Counted from the first letter of the stretch, positions 3,087 to 60,968 are shown. The stretch: DNA of 64,000 nt from Candidatus Moraniibacteriota bacterium (GCA_013334765.1 JAAXWW010000001.1:236589-300588), one strand, 5' to 3'. The notes: generated by a model from the sequence alone, not told the origin. Numbers and translations: made by a program.

Positions 3087-3530
3087 ATGTCGAAGGTATT
3101 GGTCATAAACTATAGGGGATCCGGAGATTATCTTGGATATGCCAGGATGAAGGCGGCGAAAAAAAGCGAAAACTGCTTCTGCTCTTTGCTTGCGGGTTCC
3201 AGCCAGAAGAAAGAGGCGAAAAAGTCTTCAGGAGAGAAAGGGGGTGCTAAGATAAGCCTGCTCGGTGCCGGTTCTTTCATGCTGGTGTTCGTTGCCTGCA
3301 CGGCTGCTTTCTATCTGTTCCAAGTGAACGAATTGGCCAACAAGGGATATGAAATAAGGGATTTGGAAAAGAATATCCAGATGCTTGAAAAAGAAAACAA
3401 GAGCATGCAGATAAGGGAGGTGGAACTTACGTCGATGTATTCGATCGAAAAAGCTACTGAAAATCTGGGCCTGGTGAATTCGACCGCGGCTTCCTATGTG
3501 GCTATGAGCGCAACGGTAGCGATGAAATAA
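3087..3530 (+). CDS. FtsL-like cell-division protein (single TM plus coiled coil)
   Basis: Position between rsmH and ftsI; TM helix (LLGAGSFMLVFVACTAAFYLF) followed by a coiled coil. Confidence 0.45.
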   Translation: MSKVLVINYRGSGDYLGYARMKAAKKSENCFCSLLAGSSQKKEAKKSSGEKGGAKISLLGAGSFMLVFVACTAAFYLFQVNELANKGYEIRDLEKNIQMLEKENKSMQIREVELTSMYSIEKATENLGLVNSTAASYVAMSATVAMK

Positions 3531-5465: not shown

Positions 5466-5553
5466 ATGCTATGATGATAATATGCGGGCGTTCATGTTCG
5501 CCTCACTCGTTCAGTTGTCATATGCAAATGCATAAGTCATAAAGATACAGGAT

Positions 5554-10992: not shown

Positions 10993-11141
10993 AGGACTTG
11001 CGTATTTGCCTCAAAAACCTTTCAAATCGCGAGGCTGTGCGGAACTCGTCCGGGTTATATACGGGTTCGGTCTCGACTCTCCAGAAACTGCTTTCTGTTT
11101 CTGGCTAAGAAAAAGGTTTTTTCAGCAAACGCGTAAGTCCT
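10993..11141 (+). repeat. family-1 palindromic intergenic element, copy A
   Basis: About 30-bp terminal inverted repeats aggacttgcgtatttgcctcaaaaaccttt / aaaggttttttcagcaaacgcgtaagtcct. Near-identical copies at 31930-32077 and 60807-60954. Confidence 0.9.
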
Positions 11142-11162
11142 AAAGCAAATTAGCAAAAAAGC

Positions 11163-12191: not shown

Positions 12192-12237
12192 AGAAGATTT
12201 CTATGGATCTTGCGAATATGCAAAGTTCCGCATAAAA

Positions 12238-12275
12238 AGAAAAATCCGTCCAGCTTGCGCGGGACGGATTTTTCT
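12238..12275. terminator. rho-independent terminator (bidirectional)
   Basis: aaaaatccgtcc-cagcttgcgc-gggacggatttttc with T/A runs on both sides, between convergent genes. Confidence 0.6.
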
Positions 12276-12404
12276 TTTTATGAAAAAGTAGTGATATACT
12301 TGTTTCGTTTGCCTGCCTTAGCCGAAGCTACGCTGGACGAGTCCGCCTTCGTCCCGCTTAGCGGGACTACGGCGGACAAGGAAAGAACATGCAATTGTTG
12401 TTTT

Positions 12405-13580: not shown

Positions 13581-13713
13581 TCACATGTGGAAAATTATTT
13601 TTTAAATTTAAAAAATAATTTCTGCAAAAAACAAAGGTCGAAACAAAAAGAAAATTGGAGAGAATAATTTCCAAGGAATTAGAAAATAAAAATAGAAAGG
13701 ACGGTGATAAAAA

Positions 13714-13866
13714 ATGGCAAAGAAAAAAGTAGCTAAGAAAGCTGTGAAGAAAGTAGCCAAGAAAAAGGTTGCTAAGAAAGCCGTGAAAAAAGTTGCTAAG
13801 AAAAAAGTAGCTAAGAAGGCCGTGAAGAAGGTTGCTAAGAAGAAAGTGGCTAAGAAAAAGAAATAG
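13714..13866 (+). CDS. 50-aa lysine/alanine-rich repeat protein, histone H1/Hc1-like (MAKKKVAKKAVKKVAKKK x3)
   Basis: ATG 13714 with AAAGGA Shine-Dalgarno; 39-bp (13-aa) unit repeated 3.5x; stop TAG 13864-13866. Absent from the ORF track (<60 aa); its reverse complement appears there as the FLATFF ORF. Confidence 0.6.
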   Translation: MAKKKVAKKAVKKVAKKKVAKKAVKKVAKKKVAKKAVKKVAKKKVAKKKK

Positions 13867-13964
13867 TTTTCAACGAAAGCGTTCCGATCGTGGAACAAGC
13901 AAACTTAAGAAATAAAGATAGCTTAAGTTTTCCATACGGGTGCCGGTGCACCGGTGTCATGTAT

Positions 13965-14000
13965 AAAGCAAAAAACCGCTAACATGCGGTTTTTTGCTTT
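13965..14000. terminator. rho-independent terminator (bidirectional) between Lys-rich gene and prmC
   Basis: aaagcaaaaaaccgc-taacat-gcggttttttgcttt, a perfect 15-bp stem with U-runs on both strands. Confidence 0.75.
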
Positions 14001-14014
14001 ATACGGGGCTATTT

Positions 14015-22118: not shown

Positions 22119-22724
22119 GTGGATCAAAAGAAATTGAAATCGATAATCGAAAGCATTTTATTCATAAGCGGTGAGCCGCTGTCGCTTTCGCGCATCTCGA
22201 AAGTTACTGGCGCTTCGGAAGAGGAAATCGAAACGGCTCTTGGATTTGTCGTTGAGGATTATTCCGATGGAAGAGGGGTAGTTGTCATAAGGAAAGAGGA
22301 CAAGGTGGAGATGGCGACCAGTCCGGAAAACGCGGAGATCATTTCCGAGCTGGTGAAAAGCGAGATTCAGGAGAACCTCAGTCCGGCGGCATTGGAAGTC
22401 TTGTCGATCATCGCTTATCGTGGTCCGATTGCGCGCGTTGAGATCGAGTCTATCCGCGGGGTCAACTGCAGCTTCACTTTGCGTTCGCTGCTGATGCGTT
22501 CTCTTATTGAGAGAGTGGATAATCCGAAAGACAGCCGGGGATATCTGTATAAGATTTCTTTCCAATTCCTGGAAAGCCTGGGTATGCCGAGCGTTGAAAA
22601 ATTGCCTGATTTCGATAATCTGAGCAAGGACACCAGGATTGAAAGCGTTTTGGTGAAAGAAGAAGATGGGAAAGCGCCGAACGCTGAAACGGTTATGGAA
22701 AATATTGCTGATGAGAGTAAATAG
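22119..22724 (+). CDS. scpB: segregation and condensation protein B
   Basis: SILFISGEPLSLSRISKV...LEVLSIIAYRGPI. Confidence 0.85.
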   Translation: MDQKKLKSIIESILFISGEPLSLSRISKVTGASEEEIETALGFVVEDYSDGRGVVVIRKEDKVEMATSPENAEIISELVKSEIQENLSPAALEVLSIIAYRGPIARVEIESIRGVNCSFTLRSLLMRSLIERVDNPKDSRGYLYKISFQFLESLGMPSVEKLPDFDNLSKDTRIESVLVKEEDGKAPNAETVMENIADESK

Positions 22725-22747
22725 GCGATATGATTGGCTGATGACCA

Positions 22748-22900
22748 GGCGAAGGAGAGGAAATTCAAAGGAACCAAACTCGAATACTCCGTTTTCTTTC
22801 CAAAATATTCACGCCTCTGATTCGTCGGTATGCCTCAGAAAATTTTGGAGAAAATGGGCATTCTCAGACAGTGTTTCCTTCGAATTTCCTCTCCTTCGCC
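22748..22900 (+). repeat. family-3 palindromic intergenic element, copy a
   Basis: 25-bp terminal inverted repeats ggcgaaggagaggaaattcaaagga / tccttcgaatttcctctccttcgcc; core about 85% identical to 25159-25313. Confidence 0.85.
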
Positions 22901-22934
22901 TTAGCTGTATTATTCTATAGATTTAAAAATACCA

Positions 22935-23966
22935 ATGCTGAATCTGATAATTACAATCCTAGCCGTTCCGTTCCTGCCGGCTTTTTTCTATGGCAATGCC
23001 GCGAATGGCATAAGCCAGCAGGATAGCGCCAGCACCGTTGTCATTGAGAATGACGATTCCAAAGTTCTTGGAGAGGCAAGCGAATCCGGCGCGGTGTGCG
23101 GCAACATCCAGAAGCAGAATCTTTTTCCGATCGAAGCCGACGGATTGGTGCCGAGAAGAGTGAAGGGATCTCCTGATATGATGGTCTGGGCCGGATCGGC
23201 CGTTTCCATAGATGCTGACACGGGAACGATCCTCTATTATGATAATGGCAGGAAGAGGACGCAGATCGCGTCGCTCACGAAACTGATGACGGCGATGCTG
23301 GTTATTGATAATATAAAGGATCTCAACGAGCCGGTCACCATAACGAAAGAGGCGATGATGGTTCCGGCGACGATTGTCGGATGTCCGACAAGCACGCTTT
23401 GCAACAGCAACCGGATGTATACCGGAGAGAAGGTGCGCGCGATAGACCTTCTGAAAGTCATGCTCTTGAACAGTGCCAATGATGCGGCGACGGCACTCGG
23501 GGTTCAGGTGGCCGGATCGACTGAGAAGTTCGCCAAGATGATGAATGATAAGGCTGATGAGATGGGGCTGGTGGATACGCATTTCTGCACGCCCTCGGGG
23601 CTGGAAATAGACGGGCATGAAGATGAGTGCTATTCGTCAGCCTATGACATCGCAAGGATCGGAGTGGCGTCGCTTGGCTATGACCTTATCTGGCAGATAA
23701 TGAAGATACCGGAAGGCGTTTTCTATTCCGCGGACGGCAAATACATGCATCAGATGAAGAACACGGACGCGTTTCTGGGAAATATGTCGAATTGCCTAGG
23801 CGCGAAAACAGGGTTCACTCCTTTGGCTGGGAAGTCGCTGCTTCTGGCTACGGTCGATCCGACGGGGAAGCACAAGGTGGTCTCGGTCCTTCTCAACGAC
23901 GAGAACCGCTGGGAGGATATGCGTTCATTGGTGGACTGGGCATATGGAAGCTATGAGTGGAAATAA
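22935..23966 (+). CDS. D-alanyl-D-alanine carboxypeptidase (S11, PBP5/DacC-like)
   Basis: SxxK (IASLTK), SxN (NSANDAA) and KTG (GAKTGFT) motifs. Confidence 0.8.
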   Translation: MLNLIITILAVPFLPAFFYGNAANGISQQDSASTVVIENDDSKVLGEASESGAVCGNIQKQNLFPIEADGLVPRRVKGSPDMMVWAGSAVSIDADTGTILYYDNGRKRTQIASLTKLMTAMLVIDNIKDLNEPVTITKEAMMVPATIVGCPTSTLCNSNRMYTGEKVRAIDLLKVMLLNSANDAATALGVQVAGSTEKFAKMMNDKADEMGLVDTHFCTPSGLEIDGHEDECYSSAYDIARIGVASLGYDLIWQIMKIPEGVFYSADGKYMHQMKNTDAFLGNMSNCLGAKTGFTPLAGKSLLLATVDPTGKHKVVSVLLNDENRWEDMRSLVDWAYGSYEWK

Positions 23967-24036
23967 TTTATCATATAAAGAACGGGGTATGAAGCATGGA
24001 GCGGTATCCGATTATGTTTCCTGCCACGCATAAGCT

Positions 24037-25143
24037 ATGGAATTTTCTCAGGTGCAAACCATTCCGGTGGTGATGAATATCATGAAGGTTCTTCTGACGG
24101 GGTTCCTGGCTTTCATCATAGCCTTTTTCCTTACGCCCCTCATGACGCATTTCCTGTATAAATACAGGATAGGCATAAAGATAAAGAAAACGGATGTTAA
24201 TGGTGAGAAGCTGACCTATGTCAGCCAGCTTCATCAGCATAAGGCCAATACTCCCGTCATGGGAGGGATTCTGGTCTGGTTCACTGTGATGATATTGGTT
24301 TTCGCTTCGCATTATCTATTTCCGATCCTGGCTGGATGGTGGGATATGAACTTTTTGGCCAGGCTTGATTTTTTGAGCCGCAAACAGGTATGGCTTCCTC
24401 TTTTTGCTCTCGTTTCAGCCGGAATACTCGGGCTTTGCGATGATTTCGCGAGCGTTAAGGGGCTTGGGAAGAACAAAGGGGGCGGAATAAGGTTTTTGAC
24501 CCGTTTCGGATGGCTTATCCTTATTTCGGGCCTAGGCGCCTGGTGGTTTTATTATAAGCTCGGGTGGGACAGGATCCATATCCCGGCTATCGGCGATTTC
24601 AGTATCGGGCTGTGGTATATCCCGCTTTTCATGTTCGTCATCCTTTTTGCGGCTATTTCTTCCAATGAGACGGACGGGCTGGATGGTCTCAATGGAGGGA
24701 TCCTGCTTATCGCCTTCGCTTCGTTCGGAATAATATCGTTCGTCGGCAATAAGCTTGATCTGGCGGCTTTCTGTGCCGCGATTTCGGGCGCTCTTCTGGC
24801 ATTCCTTTGGTTCAATGTCTATCCGGCGCGCTTTTTCATGGGGGATACGGGAGCGATATCGCTCGGCGCGACTCTCGGGGTGGTTGCTATGATCACTAAT
24901 TCCGCGCTCATACTTTTCATCATAGTTTTCGTGTATATCATTGAATCCATGTCTGTTGTCATACAGCTTGGATCCAAGAAATTCTTCAAGAGGAAGGTTT
25001 TTCTGGCGGCCCCGATCCATCATCATTTCGAAGCCAAAGGCTGGCCGGAGACCAAAGTGACTATGCGAGCATGGATACTTACGTTGGTTTTCGCGCTGGT
25101 AGGGGTTATAATAGGGATATTGGGAATGGGCAAGTGGAAATAA
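24037..25143 (+). CDS. mraY: phospho-N-acetylmuramoyl-pentapeptide transferase
   Basis: NETDGLDGLNGG and a ...HHHFEAKGWPETKV C-terminus. Confidence 0.9.
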   Translation: MEFSQVQTIPVVMNIMKVLLTGFLAFIIAFFLTPLMTHFLYKYRIGIKIKKTDVNGEKLTYVSQLHQHKANTPVMGGILVWFTVMILVFASHYLFPILAGWWDMNFLARLDFLSRKQVWLPLFALVSAGILGLCDDFASVKGLGKNKGGGIRFLTRFGWLILISGLGAWWFYYKLGWDRIHIPAIGDFSIGLWYIPLFMFVILFAAISSNETDGLDGLNGGILLIAFASFGIISFVGNKLDLAAFCAAISGALLAFLWFNVYPARFFMGDTGAISLGATLGVVAMITNSALILFIIVFVYIIESMSVVIQLGSKKFFKRKVFLAAPIHHHFEAKGWPETKVTMRAWILTLVFALVGVIIGILGMGKWK

Positions 25144-25158
25144 TCAAGTGTGCCAGGC

Positions 25159-25313
25159 GGCAAACCGGATGAGATTTCAAAAGAACCAAACTCGAATGCT
25201 CGGTTTTCTTCTCAAAATATTCACGCCTCTGAATCGTTAGCATGCCTCGGAATATTTTGAAGAAAACCGGCATTCTCAAACAGTGTTTCTTTTGAAATCT
25301 CACCCAGTTTGCC
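25159..25313 (+). repeat. family-3 palindromic intergenic element, copy b
   Basis: Terminal inverted repeats ggcaaaccggatgagatttcaaaag / cttttgaaatctcacccagtttgcc; core shared with 22748-22900. Confidence 0.85.
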
Positions 25314-25337
25314 TAATAACTAAAAATAAAAAAAACT

Positions 25338-26375
25338 ATGTTAAGAAGAATACAGGATGCTGATGTTGCGAATAAGAAAGTGCTGGTGAGGGTTGATTTC
25401 AACGCGGCGCTTGAAAACGAGGATGTGAAGGAGACATTCAAGGTTGCGGCAGCGAAGGAGACTGTCGATTATCTTCTTTCGAAAAATGCCAAGGTGGCGA
25501 TGATAACCCATTTGGGCAGGCCGGATGGCAAGGCTGTTCCGGAATTGTCACTGGGACAGATCAGGGATGATGCTGAGAGGATCCTTGGGATCAGGACTGC
25601 TTTTGTTCCCGACTGCATCGGGGAAAAAGTCGGTGAGGCTATGGATGCTCTTGGGTTCGGTGAGACATTGCTTTTGGAAAACGTGCGATTCTATGACGGC
25701 GATGAAAAAAACGATCCTGAGTTTGCCGGAAAGCTGGCTCAGAATTTCGATATCTTCATAAACGACGCTTTTTCGGCATCGCATCGCGATCATGCTTCCG
25801 TTTCGGGGATAGCCAGGATTTTGCCGAGTTTTGCCGGATTGAGGCTTCAGAAAGAAGTCGAAGAAATGGAAAAGGTGAAGGAGGGATTCTCTCGGCCGGC
25901 AGTCGCGATCATCGGCGGCGCTAAAATCGAAACCAAACTTCCGGTCATCGAGTTTTTCGAGGAAAAATATGACAATGTATTGGTCGGTGGAAAGATTGCC
26001 AATGAGGCGATCGATCAGAAGCTGGAATTTTCGGAGAAAGTGGTTTTGCCGGCGGATTTCGTGGATGACCGCTTGGATATCGGCCCCGACACGCTTTTGC
26101 GCTTCAAGGAAATCGTCCTTGGCGCCAAGACGATTGTCTGGAACGGTCCGACTGGAAAATTCGAGGATGAGAAATATGCGGTGAGTTCCAATGAGATACT
26201 CAACGCGGTTATTGCAAGCGGAGCTTATTCCCTGATTGGCGGAGGCGAGACGCTCGAAATTCTTGAAAAGAACGATGCGATGGGTAAGGTGAGTTTCGTT
26301 TCGACTGGAGGAGGAGCGATGCTTGATTATCTCGGCGGAGCGCCCATGCCGGGGATTGAGGTGTTGGAATCCTAG
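25338..26375 (+). CDS. pgk: phosphoglycerate kinase (compact, 345 aa)
   Basis: VLVRVDFN, GGGETL and STGGGA motifs. Confidence 0.9.
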   Translation: MLRRIQDADVANKKVLVRVDFNAALENEDVKETFKVAAAKETVDYLLSKNAKVAMITHLGRPDGKAVPELSLGQIRDDAERILGIRTAFVPDCIGEKVGEAMDALGFGETLLLENVRFYDGDEKNDPEFAGKLAQNFDIFINDAFSASHRDHASVSGIARILPSFAGLRLQKEVEEMEKVKEGFSRPAVAIIGGAKIETKLPVIEFFEEKYDNVLVGGKIANEAIDQKLEFSEKVVLPADFVDDRLDIGPDTLLRFKEIVLGAKTIVWNGPTGKFEDEKYAVSSNEILNAVIASGAYSLIGGGETLEILEKNDAMGKVSFVSTGGGAMLDYLGGAPMPGIEVLES

Positions 26376-26392
26376 CTTTTTCAGTATCTGGC

Positions 26393-26548
26393 GGCGAGGG
26401 GATTTATTATTTCTGAATGAACTCACCTGTCTGAGAACGCGCATTTTTTCAAAAATATTCCACCGGATGCCGTCGATTGAGGGAATATTTTTGAATAAAA
26501 AATGCGACGTTCGAGTCAGTTCATTCAGAAATAATAAATCCCCTCGCC
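26393..26548 (+). repeat. family-2 palindromic intergenic element, copy 1
   Basis: Arms ggcgaggggatttattatttctgaatgaactcac / gtcagttcattcagaaataataaatcccctcgcc; core cgcattttttcaaaaatattcc...ggaatatttttgaa...aaaaatgcg. Confidence 0.85.
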
Positions 26549-26591
26549 TAGTATTAAAATGTAAAATGTAAGAATTTAACGAATAAATAAT

Positions 26592-27848
26592 ATGAGCAAA
26601 ATAAAAAAAATATTCGCGCGTGAGATTCTGGATTCGAGGGGCAATCCTACGGTGGAAGTTGAGATGGAATTGGAGAGCGGATTGAGCGCGACAGCGGCTG
26701 TGCCGTCGGGAGCTTCGACCGGATCGCATGAAGCGCTTGAGCTTCGCGACAATGATCCGAAAAGATATCACGGCCTGGGAGTCATCCAGGCGGTCAAGAA
26801 CGTGAACACGAAAATCCAGAAGGCGATTGTGGGAATGGAAGTTTCGATGCAAGCCGAGATCGACAAGGCGATGATCGATCTTGACGGCACGGAAAACAAA
26901 TCGAAACTCGGAGCCAATGCGATTTTGGGCGTGTCTCTGGCAGCGGCGCGCGTGGCGGCTATGGAGAAAAAGGTGCCGCTTTACGAATATATCGCAGTCC
27001 TTTATGGCGAAACTCCGAAAAAGTTCAAGACCCCGATCCCGATGTTCAACGTGATAAACGGCGGAGCGCACAGCGATTCCGGCCTTTCGATCCAGGAATT
27101 CAAGATCGTGCCACACGGAATAAAGAAATTCAAAGAGCAGCTCCGGGCTGGAAGCGAAGTTTTTCATGAGCTCAAAAAGCTCTTGGCTTCTGAAGGATAT
27201 TCTGTCGGTGTGGGGGACGAGGGAGGATTCGCGCCGCGCCTTGAAAGCAATGCCAAAGCGTTGGAATTCATCAATCTTGCGATTGAGAATGCGGGATATG
27301 AGAAAGGCAAGCAGGTGGCGATCGGACTCGACGCGGCTGCTAGCGGGTTCTATAACGAGCAGGAAGGCCAGTATGTGTTCAAGCCGGAGAACGCTCCGCT
27401 GACGCGGGAGATGCTGGTGAATATATATAACGAGTGGATCGATAAGTATAACGTGATTTCGGTCGAAGACGGATTGTTCGAGGACGATTGGGAGGGATGG
27501 CACGCCATGGAGGAGAAAATCGGGAAAAGGGTGATGTCTATCGGGGACGATCTTCTGGTGACGAATGTGAAACGGGTCAAGAAAGCGATCGAAGAAAAAG
27601 CATGCAACGCGGTTCTCATCAAGGTGAATCAGATTGGAACGCTCACGGAGACATTGGATTGTATGCGGCTTGCCAAGAAGAACAAGATGAAGCGGGTGAT
27701 GTCGCACCGCTCGGGAGAAACGACCGATGACTTCATTTCTGATCTCGCTGTCGGAGCGGGTGCTGAATATATGAAGTCGGGCTCGCTTTCCAGAGGCGAA
27801 AGGATCTGCAAATACAACAGGCTTTTGAGGATTGAGGAGAAGATATAG
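26592..27848 (+). CDS. eno: enolase
   Basis: MSKIKKIFAREILDSRGNPTVEVE... full-length enolase. Confidence 0.95.
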   Translation: MSKIKKIFAREILDSRGNPTVEVEMELESGLSATAAVPSGASTGSHEALELRDNDPKRYHGLGVIQAVKNVNTKIQKAIVGMEVSMQAEIDKAMIDLDGTENKSKLGANAILGVSLAAARVAAMEKKVPLYEYIAVLYGETPKKFKTPIPMFNVINGGAHSDSGLSIQEFKIVPHGIKKFKEQLRAGSEVFHELKKLLASEGYSVGVGDEGGFAPRLESNAKALEFINLAIENAGYEKGKQVAIGLDAAASGFYNEQEGQYVFKPENAPLTREMLVNIYNEWIDKYNVISVEDGLFEDDWEGWHAMEEKIGKRVMSIGDDLLVTNVKRVKKAIEEKACNAVLIKVNQIGTLTETLDCMRLAKKNKMKRVMSHRSGETTDDFISDLAVGAGAEYMKSGSLSRGERICKYNRLLRIEEKI

Positions 27849-27857
27849 GCAAAAGAA

Positions 27858-27890
27858 AATCGCCGCCAGTCCGTTTGGATTGGCGGCGAT
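27858..27890 (-). terminator. rho-independent terminator for minus-strand 36-aa ORF (11-bp stem)
   Basis: aatcgccgcca-gtccgtttggat-tggcggcgatt; the U-run (ttttcttttgc) is on the minus strand. Confidence 0.55.
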
Positions 27891-27929
27891 TGTGGAAGCC
27901 CCATCTTTAACATTGATCACCTTCTCATT

Positions 27930-31925: not shown

Positions 31926-31929
31926 GCTC

Positions 31930-32077
31930 AGGACTTATGCGTTTGCCTCAGAAACCTTTTAAATCGCGAGGCTATTCGCGATCTGTCCGGGTTATATATG
32001 GTTTTATCTTGACTTTCCAGAAATTGCTTTCTGTTTCTGGCTAGAGAAAAGGTTTTTTCAGCAAACGCATAAGTCCT
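31930..32077 (+). repeat. family-1 palindromic intergenic element, copy B
   Basis: About 88% identical to 10993-11141; both arms carry compensating changes (tatgcg). Confidence 0.9.
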
Positions 32078-32111
32078 ATTTGTTATTAATTAATCCTTCA
32101 GGCTCAGCAGA

Positions 32112-37339: not shown

Positions 37340-37437
37340 CATACTGTATACCGTATATTGTATATCGTATGGAAAATACGAAAATAAAATAATTTACTGA
37401 TCTGAATGCATGGAAAGAAAGTCATAAGCTGGTCCTG

Positions 37438-37746
37438 ATGACCTATAGGTATAGCGATAGCTTTCCTAAAAGTGAAATTTTTGGACTAACCAATCAGATC
37501 AGAAGAGCTGTTGTTTCCGTCGTGTCTAATATTGCCGAAGGCTTCAGCAGAAGCACAGTTAGGGATAAATGCCATTTTTATTCAATCGCGCACGGATCGT
37601 TAACGGAATTGCAGAGCCAGCTGATAATTGCAAGAGACCTGCATTTTTTAGAAAAAATCAATTTCGAAAAGCTTGCATCGCAAACCATAGAAGTCTCAAA
37701 GCTTATCAGCGGATTAAAGAGGATAGGAGGTGATACAAAATACTAA
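37438..37746 (+). CDS. four-helix-bundle protein (23S rRNA intervening-sequence protein family, TIGR02436-like)
   Basis: SFPKSEIFGLTNQIRRAVVSVVSNIAEGFSR...GSLTELQSQL. The conserved N-terminus (DLNAWKESHKLVL) is encoded in-frame upstream (37399-37437) without ATG/GTG/TTG (only CTG at 37402). Inverted repeats flank the gene. Confidence 0.7.
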   Translation: MTYRYSDSFPKSEIFGLTNQIRRAVVSVVSNIAEGFSRSTVRDKCHFYSIAHGSLTELQSQLIIARDLHFLEKINFEKLASQTIEVSKLISGLKRIGGDTKY

Positions 37747-37770
37747 ATACGATATACGGAATACGAAGCA

Positions 37771-45250: not shown

Positions 45251-45535
45251 ATGACAAAGAAAAAAGAAATGAGTATCGATGATTTGGCGGTGCTGATTAA
45301 AAAAGAGTTCGACCGAGTCGATGACAGGTTCGCTGGCATTGATAAAAGATTCGCTGGCATTGATAAAAGGTTTGTAAACATCGACAAAAGATTCGATGGC
45401 GTCGAAGAGCGTTTGGATAGGCTTGAGTTCAGTCAGAAAGATATCCGGAACGAGCTGAATTTCATGGTGCATAAGTTCGAGCTGAAAGAGCTCGAATACA
45501 GGGTTGAGAAATTGGAAAAGAAATTTTCAAAATAA
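45251..45535 (+). CDS. 94-aa coiled-coil repeat protein inserted between porA and porB
   Basis: Heptad repeats RFAGIDK RFAGIDK RFVNIDK RFDGVEE encoded by a 21-bp tandem DNA repeat (about 45313-45400). No Shine-Dalgarno; 2-nt gap to porB. Confidence 0.4.
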   Translation: MTKKKEMSIDDLAVLIKKEFDRVDDRFAGIDKRFAGIDKRFVNIDKRFDGVEERLDRLEFSQKDIRNELNFMVHKFELKELEYRVEKLEKKFSK

Positions 45536-45537
45536 TT

Positions 45538-46440
45538 ATGAACAAAGAACTGGCTAAGAATTTCGCTCCCGGCCATAGCGCCTGCCAAGGCTGCGGTTTT
45601 CCGGCGATAGTGAGGACGATTTTGGGCGAGGCGACGACACCGATCGTGGTTGCCAATGCGACGGGGTGCCTCGAGGTGACATCGACCATCTATCCGTATA
45701 CGGCCTGGAAAGTGCCGTATATCCACAATGCTTTCGAGAATGCCGCTGCCACCATTTCCGGAGTCGAGCGGGCATACAAAGCGCTCAGCAAGAAAGGGAA
45801 GATAAAGAAGAAGATAAAATTCGTGGCTTTCGGAGGCGATGGCGGGACATATGATATCGGATTGCAATCCCTTTCGGGCGCTCTTGAACGCGGCCATGAT
45901 TTCCTGTATGTGGTCTATGACAACGGAGGATATATGAACACCGGAAATCAGCGATCGTCTGCGACTCCGTATGGAGCGGGGACGGAAACGACTCCGGTCG
46001 GCAAGGAGTCTTTCGGGAAAATGGAAACCAGGAAAAGCATCATGGAGATCGTGAATGCTCACAGGGTTCCGTATTTGGCGCAGGCCAACGTCGCGTATCT
46101 CGCGGATCTCAAGAAGAAAGCCAAGAAGGCGCTGGAAGTGGAAGGCCCGTCTTTTCTGGCTGTCTTTTCGCCTTGCACCAACAATTGGAAATTCCCGACT
46201 TCTCAATATGTGAGGATCGCGCGTCTTGCCACTGAAACGAATTTCTGGCCGCTCTATGAAATCGAGAACGGCAAATACAATATCAATTGGGCAACGGAAA
46301 AGCCGAAGCCGGTGGAAGAATTCCTCAAGACCCAGGGCAGGTTCAAGCATCTTTTTTCTGAAAAGAACAAGGGCGTCCTGAAAGAGGTTCAGAAGAAAGT
46401 CGATGACGAATGGATGAGGCTGGTTAATCTGACGGACTAA
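45538..46440 (+). CDS. porB: pyruvate:ferredoxin oxidoreductase beta subunit (TPP-binding)
   Basis: GCGFPAIV...GGDGGTYDIG TPP motif. Confidence 0.85.
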   Translation: MNKELAKNFAPGHSACQGCGFPAIVRTILGEATTPIVVANATGCLEVTSTIYPYTAWKVPYIHNAFENAAATISGVERAYKALSKKGKIKKKIKFVAFGGDGGTYDIGLQSLSGALERGHDFLYVVYDNGGYMNTGNQRSSATPYGAGTETTPVGKESFGKMETRKSIMEIVNAHRVPYLAQANVAYLADLKKKAKKALEVEGPSFLAVFSPCTNNWKFPTSQYVRIARLATETNFWPLYEIENGKYNINWATEKPKPVEEFLKTQGRFKHLFSEKNKGVLKEVQKKVDDEWMRLVNLTD

Positions 46441-46452
46441 TAATAAAAAGAT

Positions 46453-46767
46453 ATGGAATTCAAGGAACTGCAGAATAAGATAACGTTGGCTCTTGCCAGA
46501 TACGGAAGCGACAACGGCATAAGGGTGGATGACGAGTATGTCTTGGTGAAGCTTTTCGAGGAGATGGGGGACATCGCCAAAACAGCTTTGATATACAAGA
46601 ACAAATGCGAAAACAGGAAGATGATTCCGCGTGATGAGGCCAAGAAGATGATCGCTGTCGAAATCGCCGACACAGTCGGCCTGTTGCTGGCTTTTGCCAG
46701 TCAGCTGAATATAGATGTGGAAGAGGAAATAAAAGATAAGTGGCTTTCCAAATACGCGGAAGCCTGA
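46453..46767 (+). CDS. MazG-like nucleotide pyrophosphohydrolase domain protein
   Basis: EEMGDIAKTAL...IADTVGLLLAFASQLNIDVEEEIKDKW. Confidence 0.6.
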   Translation: MEFKELQNKITLALARYGSDNGIRVDDEYVLVKLFEEMGDIAKTALIYKNKCENRKMIPRDEAKKMIAVEIADTVGLLLAFASQLNIDVEEEIKDKWLSKYAEA

Positions 46768-46777
46768 TTTTCCAGTG

Positions 46778-46850
46778 AGCCGCCTGTCGGAATCGAACCG
46801 ACGACCTACGCGTTACGAGTGCGTCGCTCTGCCAACTGAGCTAAGGCGGC
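46778..46850 (-). tRNA. tRNA-Thr (anticodon CGU)
   Basis: RC reads GCCGCCTTAGCTCAGTTGGCAGAGCGACGCACTCGTAACGCGTAGGTCGTCGGTTCGATTCCGACAGGCGGCT, a cloverleaf with anticodon loop CTCGTAA. Confidence 0.8.
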
Positions 46851-46851
46851 T

Positions 46852-46927
46852 GACTACGCCGAGGCTTCGTCAGCCAAAGGCCGACTATGCCGAGGCTTCG
46901 TCAGCCAAAGGCCGACTATGCCGAGGT
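46852..46927. repeat. 31-bp tandem repeat x2.45 abutting tRNA-Thr 5' end
   Basis: gactacgccgaggcttcgtcagccaaaggcc / gactatgccgaggcttcgtcagccaaaggcc / gactatgccgaggt. Confidence 0.85.
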
Positions 46928-46985
46928 TTCTTTGCTTGGGCATGACCTAGACATGATATAATAAGTCTTAAAATAATTCAAATCC

Positions 46986-47504
46986 ATGAAAATATATATC
47001 TGCGAAATCTGCGGAGACGCCTATATCGGTTCTGAAAAGCCGGCCAATTGCCCTTTCTGCGGGGCAAGGTCCAATTTCATAAAGGACGGCGCGGAAGCCA
47101 AGCCGATTGTCAATGAGAAGATAGAAATCAGTGAAGAATCCAGGAAGAATCTTTTGGAAACATTGGATCTGGAAATAGACGCCAATGCGATATATCTCTG
47201 CATGGCCGGGAAGGCGAAGGAATATATGATAAAGGCGATGTATAAGAGGCTGGCCAAGGTGGAATTCGAGCACGCGACTATTGTTACGAAACTTTTGGGG
47301 ATGGATGCTCCCAAAGCCAAGGAGCTGCCGTGTCCGGACAGCGATGCTGAAAATTTCGAAAAGACTATCGCGCTTGAGGATCACGCTGCCGCTCTTTATC
47401 GCGAATTCGTCAAGAAATCGGCCGAAAAGAATATCAGGATTTTCTTCACGGCTCTTTCCCAGGTGGAAGAGGAACATAAGCAGCTTATTTCGGAAATTGC
47501 CTGA
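46986..47504 (+). CDS. rubrerythrin-family protein with N-terminal rubredoxin-like CxxC...CxxC
   Basis: CEICG...CPFCG followed by a ferritin-like domain with ExxH pairs (EDHAAALY, EEEHKQLI). Extended -10 tGaTATAAT at 46944-46952. Confidence 0.8.
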   Translation: MKIYICEICGDAYIGSEKPANCPFCGARSNFIKDGAEAKPIVNEKIEISEESRKNLLETLDLEIDANAIYLCMAGKAKEYMIKAMYKRLAKVEFEHATIVTKLLGMDAPKAKELPCPDSDAENFEKTIALEDHAAALYREFVKKSAEKNIRIFFTALSQVEEEHKQLISEIA

Positions 47505-47516
47505 GAGACTATTATC

Positions 47517-47670
47517 GGAAAGAGAGTGATGATATTTCAAATGACTGACTCGAGCATCGCATTTTTTATTCAAAAATATTCCCTCGCTCGACGGCATCCG
47601 GTGGAATATTTTTGAAAAAATACGTGCTCTCAAACAGGTGAGTCGTTTGAAATATCATCACTCTCTTTCC
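47517..47670 (-). repeat. family-2 palindromic intergenic element, copy 2 (inverted relative to copy 1)
   Basis: The core is the reverse complement of the 26449-26515 core; different arms (ggaaagagagtgatgatatttcaaa...) that pair with each other. Confidence 0.85.
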
Positions 47671-47707
47671 TTGAGATAAGAGTAAAGCTTTAACAAAAGC
47701 TATAACA

Positions 47708-48786
47708 TATGGAAGATAAAATCATAGAATTGAAGAATAAGATCCTGCTTTTGCGGGACTATCTTTGACGTTGCGGGAAAGGAAAACAGGATCCTGGAGC
47801 TGGAGGCTGAATCGAATCGGGAGGGGTTCTGGGATGACCATCAGAAGGCTTCTTCGGTCATGCAGGAACTGGAAGAGATCAGGAAAGAGATAAGGATCCT
47901 TTTGGAAAGCGAAAAGGAAATAGCCGATATTTCGGAATTCTTGGAAATGGCGGAGAGCGAAGAGGAAAAGGATGAGATAGGGAACAAGGTTGCGGAACTT
48001 GAAAAGAACCTGGCCGAGCTGGAATTCAAGACCCTTTTCGACGGGGAATATGACAGCAATCCGGCAATCGTTTCGATATATTGCGGCGCCGGCGGGGTGG
48101 ATGCGCAGGACTGGTCGGAAATGATCCTCAGGATGTATCTCAGGTGGGCGGAAAAGAACGGTTTTCGGGCCAAGCTTCTGGATGAGACCCGCGGGCAGGA
48201 GGCCGGGATCAAGAACGCCACGATAGAATTCACCGGCCCCTATGCTTATGGATATTTGAAAAGCGAATCGGGCGTGCATCGCCTGGTGCGCCTTTCGCCT
48301 TTCAACTCGGACAATCTGAGGCAGACTTCCTTTGCCATGGTCGAGGTCCTGCCTGTTATCGATATGATAAGCGAAGTGGAGATCAAACCGGATGATCTTA
48401 GGGTGGATGTTTTCCGTTCGCAAGGGGCTGGCGGTCAGGGCGTCAATACGACGGATAGCGCGGTGAGGATCCTGCATATCCCGACTGGAATCATGGTCAC
48501 TTGCCAGAACGAGAGGAGCCAGATGCAGAACAGGGAACAGGCGATGAAGATCCTGAAAGCCAAGCTGCACAAGAAATACCTGGAAGAAAAAGAAGCGGAA
48601 AAAAACAAACTGCGGGGCGAGCAGGTGAGTGCCGAATGGGGAAGCCAGATACGGTCATATGTGGTTCATCCGTATAAAATGGTGAAGGATCACCGCACTA
48701 AGCATGAAACTGCGGATGTCGAAAGCGTTTTCGACGGGAACATCAACGGTTTCATGGAAAGCTATTTGGAGGGTTTGAAAAAATAG
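47708..48786 (+). CDS. prfB: peptide chain release factor 2 (programmed +1 frameshift; apparent extra 1-nt frame disruption)
   Basis: N-terminal MEDKIIELKNKILLLRDYL then CTT TGA C at 47762-47768. The +1 frame gives DVAGKENRILELEAESNR and stops at 47835; the main ORF (47860-48786, SPF motif, GGQ in QGAGGQGVNTT) is in the next frame. The junction is in the G-run 47817-47826. Confidence 0.8.
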
Positions 48787-60753: not shown

Positions 60754-60806
60754 TTTTCTGGTTTTCCTTTTTTTGTGATATCATTGCATCAGGGAAAATA
60801 AAATAC

Positions 60807-60954
60807 AGGACTTGCGCATTTGCCTCAAAAACCTTTTAAATCGCGAGGCTGTGCGGAACTCATCCTGGTTATATATGGTTCGGTCTTGACTCTCCAGAAA
60901 CTGCTTTCTGTTTCTGGCTAAGAAAAAAGTTTTTTCAATAAACGCGCAAGTCCT
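60807..60954 (+). repeat. family-1 palindromic intergenic element, copy C
   Basis: About 90% identical to 10993-11141; arms carry matching ttgcgc/gcgcaa changes. Confidence 0.9.
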
Positions 60955-60968
60955 AAAATAAAAACAAT

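Follow-up and report, generated by a model that had tools for sequence, protein, structure and literature searches.

A previously undescribed palindromic intergenic repeat in a Candidatus Moranbacteria genome and other Patescibacteria

Large hairpins between co-directional genes

The window (the whole stretch of DNA that was analyzed, 64,000 nt from a Candidatus Moranbacteria MAG) contains seven large hairpins of the 155-bp size class, which together make up about 1.7% of its DNA. The assignment to a Candidatus Moranbacteria MAG comes from its PGK protein, which has an exact match there; an exact-protein look-up with the MraY ORF gave no match. The enolase of the window is on a Logan contig of SRR11449211. 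The genes at the seven spacers encode glycosyltransferases; a response regulator and RecJ; DnaJ; ScpB and a D-Ala-D-Ala carboxypeptidase; MraY and PGK; PGK and enolase; and a rubrerythrin-like ORF and prfB. Each element begins 13–23 nt after the upstream stop codon. A preliminary description of this DNA had already counted seven such hairpins, all in spacers between co-directional genes, and a repeat search combined with gene calls bears this out, with all of these genes on the + strand.

Two of the hairpins, which had been reported from the scpB/dacC and mraY/pgk spacers, were found there: copy 3a at 22747–22901 and copy 3b at 25159–25313. Both are 155 nt long, and each is a single long hairpin, with a minimum free energy of −68.7 kcal/mol for 3a (z-score −8.25) and −68.9 kcal/mol for 3b (z-score −11.16); none of 200 dinucleotide shuffles was as stable. 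In 3a, the repeat search gives inverted-repeat arms at 22747–22810 and 22838–22901. The outer helix is specific to the copy: its 5′ arm, GGCGAAGGAGAGGAAA (22748–22763), pairs at all 16 positions with its 3′ arm, TTTCCTCTCCTTCGCC (22885–22900). Further in lie the two sides of an internal loop, at 22778–22785 (ACTCGAAT on the + strand, AUUCGAGU on the − strand) and at 22860–22871 (ATTCTCAGACAG on the + strand, CUGUCUGAGAAU on the − strand). On what we call the polar strand (defined below; the − strand in 3a), these are the 3′ and 5′ sides of the loop, respectively. The arms of the middle helix flank an apical region (22811–22837) that folds as a loop with a short irregular helix; one arm ends in CAAAATATTC (22801–22810) and the other starts with GAAAATTTTG (22838–22847). 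The polar strand of 3a, CUGUCUGAGAAU...AUUCGAGUUU, is antisense to scpB and to the D-Ala-D-Ala carboxypeptidase gene. The covariance model described below scores 3a at 98.8 bits on the − strand (22761–22886).

Copy 3b has the same anatomy, again with the − strand as its polar strand, and scores 108.8 bits. The repeat search places its inverted-repeat arms at 25159–25188 and 25284–25313, its internal-loop motifs are ACTCGAAT (25190–25197) and ATTCTCAAACAG (25272–25283), and its apical region spans 25223–25249. Its outer arms, GGCAAACCGGATGAGA and TCTCACCCAGTTTGCC, pair at 14 of 16 positions (the two exceptions are A·C on the + strand and G·U on the − strand). The two copies share a core, which appears as a direct repeat of 22764–22884 and 25176–25296. 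The preliminary description had given this core as about 85% identical over 105 bp; the identity holds (about 86%), while the repeat is slightly longer, at 121 nt. It had also stated that the terminal repeats match themselves within each copy and are unrelated between copies. The self-matching is as described, but the ends are not unrelated: in an ungapped alignment, GGCGAAGGAGAGGAAA and GGCAAACCGGATGAGA agree at 10 positions out of 16, and of the six that differ, five come with a Watson-Crick change on the opposite arm. In other words, these ends are homologues that have diverged between 3a and 3b and have retained their pairing.

Two more hairpins belong with these. Copy 2a lies in the pgk/enolase spacer (26393–26548; 105.5 bits), and copy 2b (47517–47670; 98.2 bits) lies between the rubrerythrin-like ORF (46986–47504) and prfB, which starts at 47709. 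A 30-nt degenerate pattern, CTGTYTGAGARYRCNNNTTTTYTYMAAAAT, matches the window at 3a, 3b, and 2b on the − strand, at 2a on the + strand, and nowhere else (0 matches expected). We define the polar, or common, strand as the one that matches this pattern, so it is sense in 2a, to which family 3 lies in inverted orientation. The cores are about 85% identical between 3a and 3b, 91% identical between 2a and 2b, and 58–65% identical between family 2 and family 3. Families 2 and 3 are one family; the earlier suspicion that they are diverged members of one superfamily held up in every test, including the specificity of the CTGTYTGAGARYRCNNNTTTTYTYMAAAAT motif for these four copies.

The other three hairpins, which we term family 1, lie on the + strand at 10993–11142, 31929–32078, and 60806–60955. 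All three have the termini AGGACTTRYGCRTTTGC; inside these is a different core, and the covariance model gives no match to them. Family 1 is tied to families 2 and 3 solely via its termini, which are common to long forms of family 2/3 in other genomes. These long forms (many copies) have a second internal loop, CCGAGUC / GCGAGGUG, with CGAG opposite CGAG, and end in AGGACTTACGCRTTTGC / AGGAGTTACGC..., as do family 1 and other 150-bp hairpins with unrelated interiors.

The 17-nt termini AGGACTTAYGCRTTTGC occur on family 1 and also on hairpins of about 150 bp from other Patescibacteria contigs (L018:1328-1472 and L045:~1358-1496), again with unrelated interiors. The AGGACTTAYGCRTTTGC-ended hairpins look like conserved ends around exchangeable cargo, and they seem nearer to a true MITE than family 2/3 is. 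No IS with AGGACTTAYGCRTTTGC ends was seen. Also, the spacer between the PBP and Mur-ligase genes (5466–5553) ends in ...GCAAATGCATAAGTCAT and has a match at 5524–5540 on the − strand with two mismatches. It is the solitary right end of a family-1-type element, and since no left end matches it, it is probably a truncated remnant.

Several other features of the window stand apart from the hairpins. In prfB (RF2; 47709–48786), a short ORF from 47709 reaches TAT CTT TGA C at about 47760–47768, and the ORF with the PCRF domain goes on in the +1 frame, so this gene seems to be read by way of the classic +1 programmed frameshift. A gene for a 102-amino-acid “23S rRNA intervening-sequence protein” (PF05635, bAvd-like) sits between ABC-transporter ATPase and permease genes and is flanked by 19-nt inverted repeats (37352–37370 and 37747–37765), which suggests that 37352–37765 is a small inserted cassette. 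At about 13709–13860 on the + strand, overlapping direct repeats with a period of 15/24 nt encode a lysine/alanine-rich protein (AKKAVKKVAKKK..., histone H1/Hc1-like); here a longest-ORF caller takes the opposite strand (13608–13898). A 790-codon frame on the − strand (25548–27920) runs antisense across pgk, 2a, and enolase. It has no Pfam match and is almost certainly spurious, so longest-ORF calling can choose the wrong strand in this genome. Finally, beside a tRNA gene (46778–46850, − strand), the region 46668–46923 contains a 31-nt tandem duplication (46848–46878 and 46879–46909, 94% identical), each unit of which is an inverted match to 46668–46689.

A family with a constrained fold

A strict pattern gave 4 matches among 185,579 species genomes. 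Three of the matching genomes are labeled as Patescibacteria or Paceibacterota and the fourth as a MAG of Bdellovibrionales. A looser pattern matched 77 metagenome stretches, about 50 of which contain true elements; in finding these metagenome copies, the pattern held a portion of one arm fixed. From 53 distinct cores we built a covariance model, which scores members at 83–132 bits on the polar strand and at 25–50 bits on the other strand (its E-values are rough because calibration was shortened). The model adds copies that the pattern missed (in L005/L036, L029, and L092). The preliminary description had expected that such a model would bring up further copies, and the genome scan, the metagenome scan, and the model together yield about 55 more distinct ones, with the same architecture and essentially all on Patescibacteria contigs. 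What they have in common resides in helices that covary and in loops that are conserved, and not in low-complexity A/T runs. On other contigs, the cores of family 3 are 81–93% identical to those of the window, which is as close as 3a is to 3b.

Two arrangements on these contigs deserve mention. L005 contains two elements that point the same way and are separated by about 500 bp (L005:2653-2773 and 3165-3285; likewise L036), of which the second was found by the covariance model only. In three contigs from distant relatives, with 65–70% nucleotide identity (L011, L015, and L028), a different hairpin subfamily lies beside a tRNA gene. Their neighborhood is homologous to 45433–46350 ... prfB of the window, where the window has 2b (region 45433–48786). 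The element may have been conserved here for a long time, or this region may have received insertions more than once.

Across the family, the elements are palindromic, intergenic, and 140–190 bp in size, and they have four parts. The outer helix (25–45 bp) is variable and copy-specific. It is followed by a conserved asymmetric internal loop, 5′-YUGUYUGA opposite 5′-GAGUU, in which closure by U·G, G·A, and A·G is possible on one strand only. Then comes an A/U-rich middle helix of 26–30 bp with a 2-nt bulge, and finally an apical loop of about 20 nt, often with GCCGUYGA.

The fold of the core is under clear constraint. Over the 26 pairs of the middle helix, 97% of the cells in the alignment are standard pairs, and 12 pairs have double-sided changes. 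Such changes occur in 211 cells, as compared to 59 ± 6 in shuffled data and at most 38 with slid partners. No search pattern included the 3′ loop motif (UCGAGU), yet its TCGA is the same in all 53 of the 53 copies. The bulge is conserved in position and free in sequence, so the constrained form is the folded single strand rather than the duplex.

The pairs say less about the nature of this strand, RNA or DNA. By folding energy, the polar strand is the more stable one in 45 of 54 copies, and it has 234 G·U pairs as compared to 86 on the other strand, but this excess is largely a search artifact because the pattern fixed the T-runs of one arm. The outer helices, which are unbiased in this respect, have 62 G·U and 69 A·C, with no excess on either strand, and so give no support for one-strand selection at the RNA level. 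At the mid-helix positions that are free of search bias, there are 30 G·U and 9 A·C on the polar strand, with one column contributing 16 of the 30.

We compared the internal loop to known motifs. Beside the middle helix, the polar strand of each of the 53 copies could form tandem G·A/A·G pairs, as in a kink-turn; in the alignment, the positions of the kink-turn C helix, which should be Watson-Crick pairs, are G·G and U·U, which departs from the canonical layout. The consensus layouts of loop E and of an IHF site in the apical loop did not fit either. GUUCGAGUC resembles a T-arm, but its RUUC covaries with GAAY as a helix, which argues against a mimic of the tRNA T-loop. A small peptide was rejected as well: a 15-codon frame from the apical loop is common to 3a and 3b and absent in family 2 and in subfamily A. 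Two scans of viral contigs returned only chance matches that were not hairpins, so we also set aside a phage origin.

Rfam models find only three tRNAs above threshold in the whole window, and a permissive scan of 22600–26700 gives chance-level matches only (for example, plant miRNA precursors at 35 bits, where the threshold is 211 bits). Searches of the literature brought up no account of repeats of this kind from CPR bacteria; the subject that came nearest was TIGR arrays (see below). The family of 3a and 3b is a previously undescribed palindromic intergenic repeat.

Orientation, gain, and persistence

Among copies with two co-directional flanking ORFs, the polar strand is antisense to both neighbors in 27 and sense in 7, with orientation and gene calls on metagenome contigs depending on a longest-ORF heuristic. 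If we consider only genes that are verified (by Pfam or by gene calling), the polar strand is antisense for three of the four window copies and for L092. The polar strand also has a terminator-like arrangement: its middle hairpin, which U·G, G·A, and A·G could extend, is directly followed by a U-rich tract. In the 14 nt after the middle hairpin, there are on average 6.8 T on the polar strand and 4.1 on the other, with the polar strand higher in 51 of 53 copies; the tail of family 2 is T-poor (5 T in 14), and for this family the terminator idea is weak. A scan of 22500–26800 with the terminator consensus finds nothing at the elements. Ordinary terminators, with a short GC-rich hairpin and a T-tract, do occur in the window (12231–12282 and 13961–14004). 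Together, the tract and the orientation suggest a putative one-way terminator that would be tolerated in gene arrays only if it points against transcription.

An internal promoter was considered and rejected: a single 9/12 match (TTGAGA-17-AATATT) lies in 3b, and its spacing is not kept across subfamilies. As to translation signals, the approximately 43 predicted starts in the window have A/T-rich leaders and almost no Shine-Dalgarno sequence upstream, and several hairpin-bearing metagenome relatives have GGAG-type sites directly after the element. That the outer arms act as Shine-Dalgarno/anti-Shine-Dalgarno pairs is ruled out, as this genome has almost no Shine-Dalgarno sequences upstream of genes.

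To see gain and loss, we used the genomic contexts of PGK homologues. One relative (L093; mraY 78% identical at the nucleotide level) has the gene order scpA-scpB-dacC-mraY-pgk-eno-pfkB, as in the window, and at the sites of 3a, 3b, and 2a it has spacers of 21, 19, and 23 nt with no elements. Another (L092; mraY also 78% identical) has a 71-nt scpB-dacC spacer without 3a and a 220-nt mraY-pgk spacer with a diverged element (74% identity to 3b, 82.5 bits), whose polar strand is antisense. Since the same syntenic sites are filled in some genomes and empty in others, the elements behave as insertions that individual lineages acquired separately, and these gene clusters can do without them.

After acquisition, the elements stay under constraint, with helices that change by compensation. 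In L035 (85%), the orthologue of 3b is 94.2% identical to it, while identity between this contig and the window is 66% at third codon positions in the genes on either side and 33–68% in the dacC-mraY spacer. The differences between the two 3b copies cluster in the apical loop and include one compensatory change of a T:A pair to C:G. This evidence from orthologous sites comes from one close pair and one distant pair. Conservation of 94% over 155 nt is more than would be expected for a purely selfish insert, and so speaks for a constraint of some kind, on the structure or at the level of the host.

There are no direct repeats in the flanks of the seven window copies that would indicate a target-site duplication, and there is no terminus common to the family 2/3 copies (beyond the 10 of 16 positions shared by 3a and 3b, the ends of 2a and 2b differ again). 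None of the relatives that we compared has an empty site near enough in sequence to fix the insertion junction. Of about 65 ORFs in the window, 39 were scanned against Pfam; all are housekeeping, with no transposase, integrase, or Y1_Tnp among them. We rejected the idea that the core had entered terminator hairpins that were already in place. The L057 copy, at a different locus on a different contig, has outer arms (CGAAGGAGRG) similar to those of 3a, so the arms travel with the element. Response-regulator homologues adjoin elements in four loci; this is a common domain, and no link is established.

Possible roles and comparison to known systems

Our preferred explanation, to which we would give about even odds (a probability near 0.5), is that these are REPIN- or MITE-like non-autonomous palindromic repeats, specific to Patescibacteria, that are recognized by their conserved interior and not by their ends and that have orientation-dependent effects at the RNA level. 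They would spread as non-autonomous DNA, like REPINs, MITEs, ERIC, or Correia elements. As there are no conserved termini and no target duplication, a trans-acting factor probably recognizes the folded conserved core instead of the ends. The effect on the host would be orientation-dependent and at the level of RNA. The G·A-extended middle hairpin of the polar strand and the U-rich tract right after it would form a terminator-like arrangement. With the polar strand mostly antisense, sense transcription would read through, and the mRNA would carry a 60- to 70-bp intercistronic hairpin, which is a likely substrate for RNase III or a barrier to 3′ exonucleases, and antisense transcription would be stopped at the element.

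A more ambitious version is doubtful. It holds that the elements are a strand-polar hairpin class of Patescibacteria that goes beyond selfish DNA: a lineage-specific protein would recognize the tandem-G·A internal loops of a single-stranded fold (RNA or DNA), spread would require neither terminal repeats nor target duplication, and the elements would be kept as one-way transcriptional insulators or processing sites between genes, in hosts whose genomes have spacers of 20 nt and hardly any Shine-Dalgarno sequences.

Strong covariation and conserved asymmetric loops, as seen here, are also typical of functional RNAs, so the elements could be stand-alone genes for small RNAs, with a promoter on the polar strand giving a hairpin RNA of about 150 nt whose loops bind a protein or RNA in trans. 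The closure of the loop on one strand only, the second CGAG/CGAG loop of the long forms, and the unbiased mid-helix G·U counts would agree with this. As the polar strand is usually antisense to its neighbors, such an RNA would need its own transcription, for which there is a weak −35/−10-like match inside 3b, and the hairpin with its U-tract could serve as its terminator. But one column supplies 16 of the 30 mid-helix G·U pairs, the outer helices show no G·U bias, no promoter is conserved upstream, and the match in 3b is poor and would place the start inside the hairpin. Also, gain and loss of multiple copies between housekeeping genes would be unusual for a trans-acting RNA gene, and there is no Rfam relative. 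We consider this reading rather unlikely. The symmetry of the outer helices, with similar numbers of G·T and A·C, would be expected if pairing is maintained at the level of DNA, for example by template-switch correction of quasi-palindromes. In that case, a hairpin or cruciform on one strand could be a site for recombination, for HUH/Y1-type transposition, or for priming, comparable to REP/RAYT, the bottom strands of attC, or the single-strand origins of rolling-circle plasmids. Polarity would then derive from the conserved mismatches and the bulge, as in attC, the ends of IS200/IS605, and REP; the orientation bias could reflect the direction of replication, as the genes here follow GC skew; and the absence of TIRs and TSDs would suit a single-strand mechanism. 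We give this DNA-level reading a similarly low chance: the scanned ORFs include no integrase or Y1 transposase, the ends have neither GTAG/CGTC (REP) nor RYYYAAC/GTTRRRY (attC), and the strand that is stabilized by G·A and G·T is usually antisense, which, for co-oriented genes, would not be the lagging-strand template that is exposed as ssDNA.

Two further explanations are much less probable. If the hairpins were cis-regulatory (terminators or attenuators) and had each arisen in their present spacer without ever moving, this would account for the tight fit between stop and start codons and for the purifying selection on the 3b orthologue. However, the same 120-nt core, 85–91% identical, is found in spacers and genomes that are unrelated, spacers of 19–23 nt occupy all three sites in a fully syntenic relative, ordinary terminators occur elsewhere in the window, and the terminator scan finds none at the elements. 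The shared core and the empty syntenic sites largely refute this idea, and we regard it as very unlikely. The last candidate, which we can hardly credit, is that the elements are solitary units of a TIGR-like (box C/D-type) array of guide RNA stem-loops. It comes to mind because TIGR arrays occur in CPR bacteria, have flanking stems that are variable but consistently palindromic, and have box C/D motifs that form G·A pairs (PMC12045711). Yet our elements are solitary rather than in tandem arrays, their interior is a continuous covarying helix without unpaired variable spacers of 8–12 nt, their motifs are not RUGAUGA/CUGA, and there is no Nop-domain protein among the ORFs scanned.

Patescibacteria are ultra-small and have streamlined genomes of roughly 1 Mb. 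A repeat family that invades such minimal genomes might be a parasite of uncommon success, or it might be a regulatory module that can be reused, and the coding-like conservation at orthologous sites, the asymmetric loops, and the orientation preference keep both possibilities open. The covariance model (R1) is a searchable RNA/DNA motif for CPR metagenomes and metatranscriptomes. The element could also be a handle for the factor that binds or mobilizes it and a marker of insertion dynamics in uncultivated lineages.

How does the family compare to known systems? It lacks defining features of MITEs (shared TIRs, TSD), REP/REPIN (GTAG/CGTC units), attC, and intrinsic terminators (a short G+C-rich stem, a loop of 3–8 nt, and a T-tract immediately 3′) and departs from the canonical layout of kink-turns, so we assign it to no named family. 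Among the signs of a MITE, insertion polymorphism between related genomes is present (L093 is empty and L092 lacks 3a), while the family 2/3 copies have no terminal inverted repeats in common and the window copies have no target-site duplication. Intrinsic (Rho-independent) terminators have a hairpin and then a U-rich tract, as does the polar strand in many copies of the element. However, the stem here is 3–4 times longer, A/U-rich, and interrupted, and the tract is paired in the full hairpin and lies mostly on the antisense strand. The attC sites of integrons are similar in size (57–141 bp), lie between co-directional ORFs, conserve structure more than sequence, and obtain polarity from extrahelical or bulged bases. 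But attC conserves its outer R″/R′ boxes and varies inside, which is the opposite of what we see, and the ends here have no R″ (RYYYAAC) or R′ (GTTRRRY). Also, attC sites flank cassettes in arrays that adjoin an integrase, while the neighbors here are core housekeeping genes (for ScpB, DacC, MraY, PGK, and enolase). The ssoA-type single-strand origins of rolling-circle plasmids are present once per plasmid, on the lagging-strand template, and have RS_B and CS-6 motifs. They share with our elements an orientation-dependent hairpin of about 150 nt, a conserved internal-loop site, and a conserved motif in the apical loop; the single copy, the lagging-strand template position, and RS_B/CS-6 are all unseen here.

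Correia elements (CREE/NEMIS) of Neisseria, ERIC/IRU of enterobacteria, RUP and BOX of pneumococcus, and the Rickettsia palindromic elements are imperfect palindromes of 100–160 bp that lie between genes and fold in the mRNAs of which they become part. RNase III cuts Correia elements, which may carry promoters or terminators and have a TA duplication. These families have conserved terminal inverted repeats, whereas the termini here are copy-specific. Our elements also differ in having no duplication, two conserved asymmetric features, and the 27:7 orientation bias.

Finally, the family differs from the RAYT-mobilized REPINs, REPs, and BIMEs in that it does not consist of two short REPs. The ends (GGCGAAGG..., GGCAAACC..., and GGAAAGAG...) are without the GTAG/CGTC head, the arms are not short palindromes, and the most conserved part (the loop motifs) is internal and not terminal. 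There is no RAYT among the 39 window ORFs scanned, and the hosts are Patescibacteria rather than Proteobacteria. The likeness is nevertheless broad: in both cases, the elements are non-coding, multi-copy, intergenic, long hairpins without classical TIRs or TSDs, with long vertical inheritance and occasional gain, and REPINs and their relatives are often co-transcribed with genes and are credited with stabilizing mRNA or terminating transcription.
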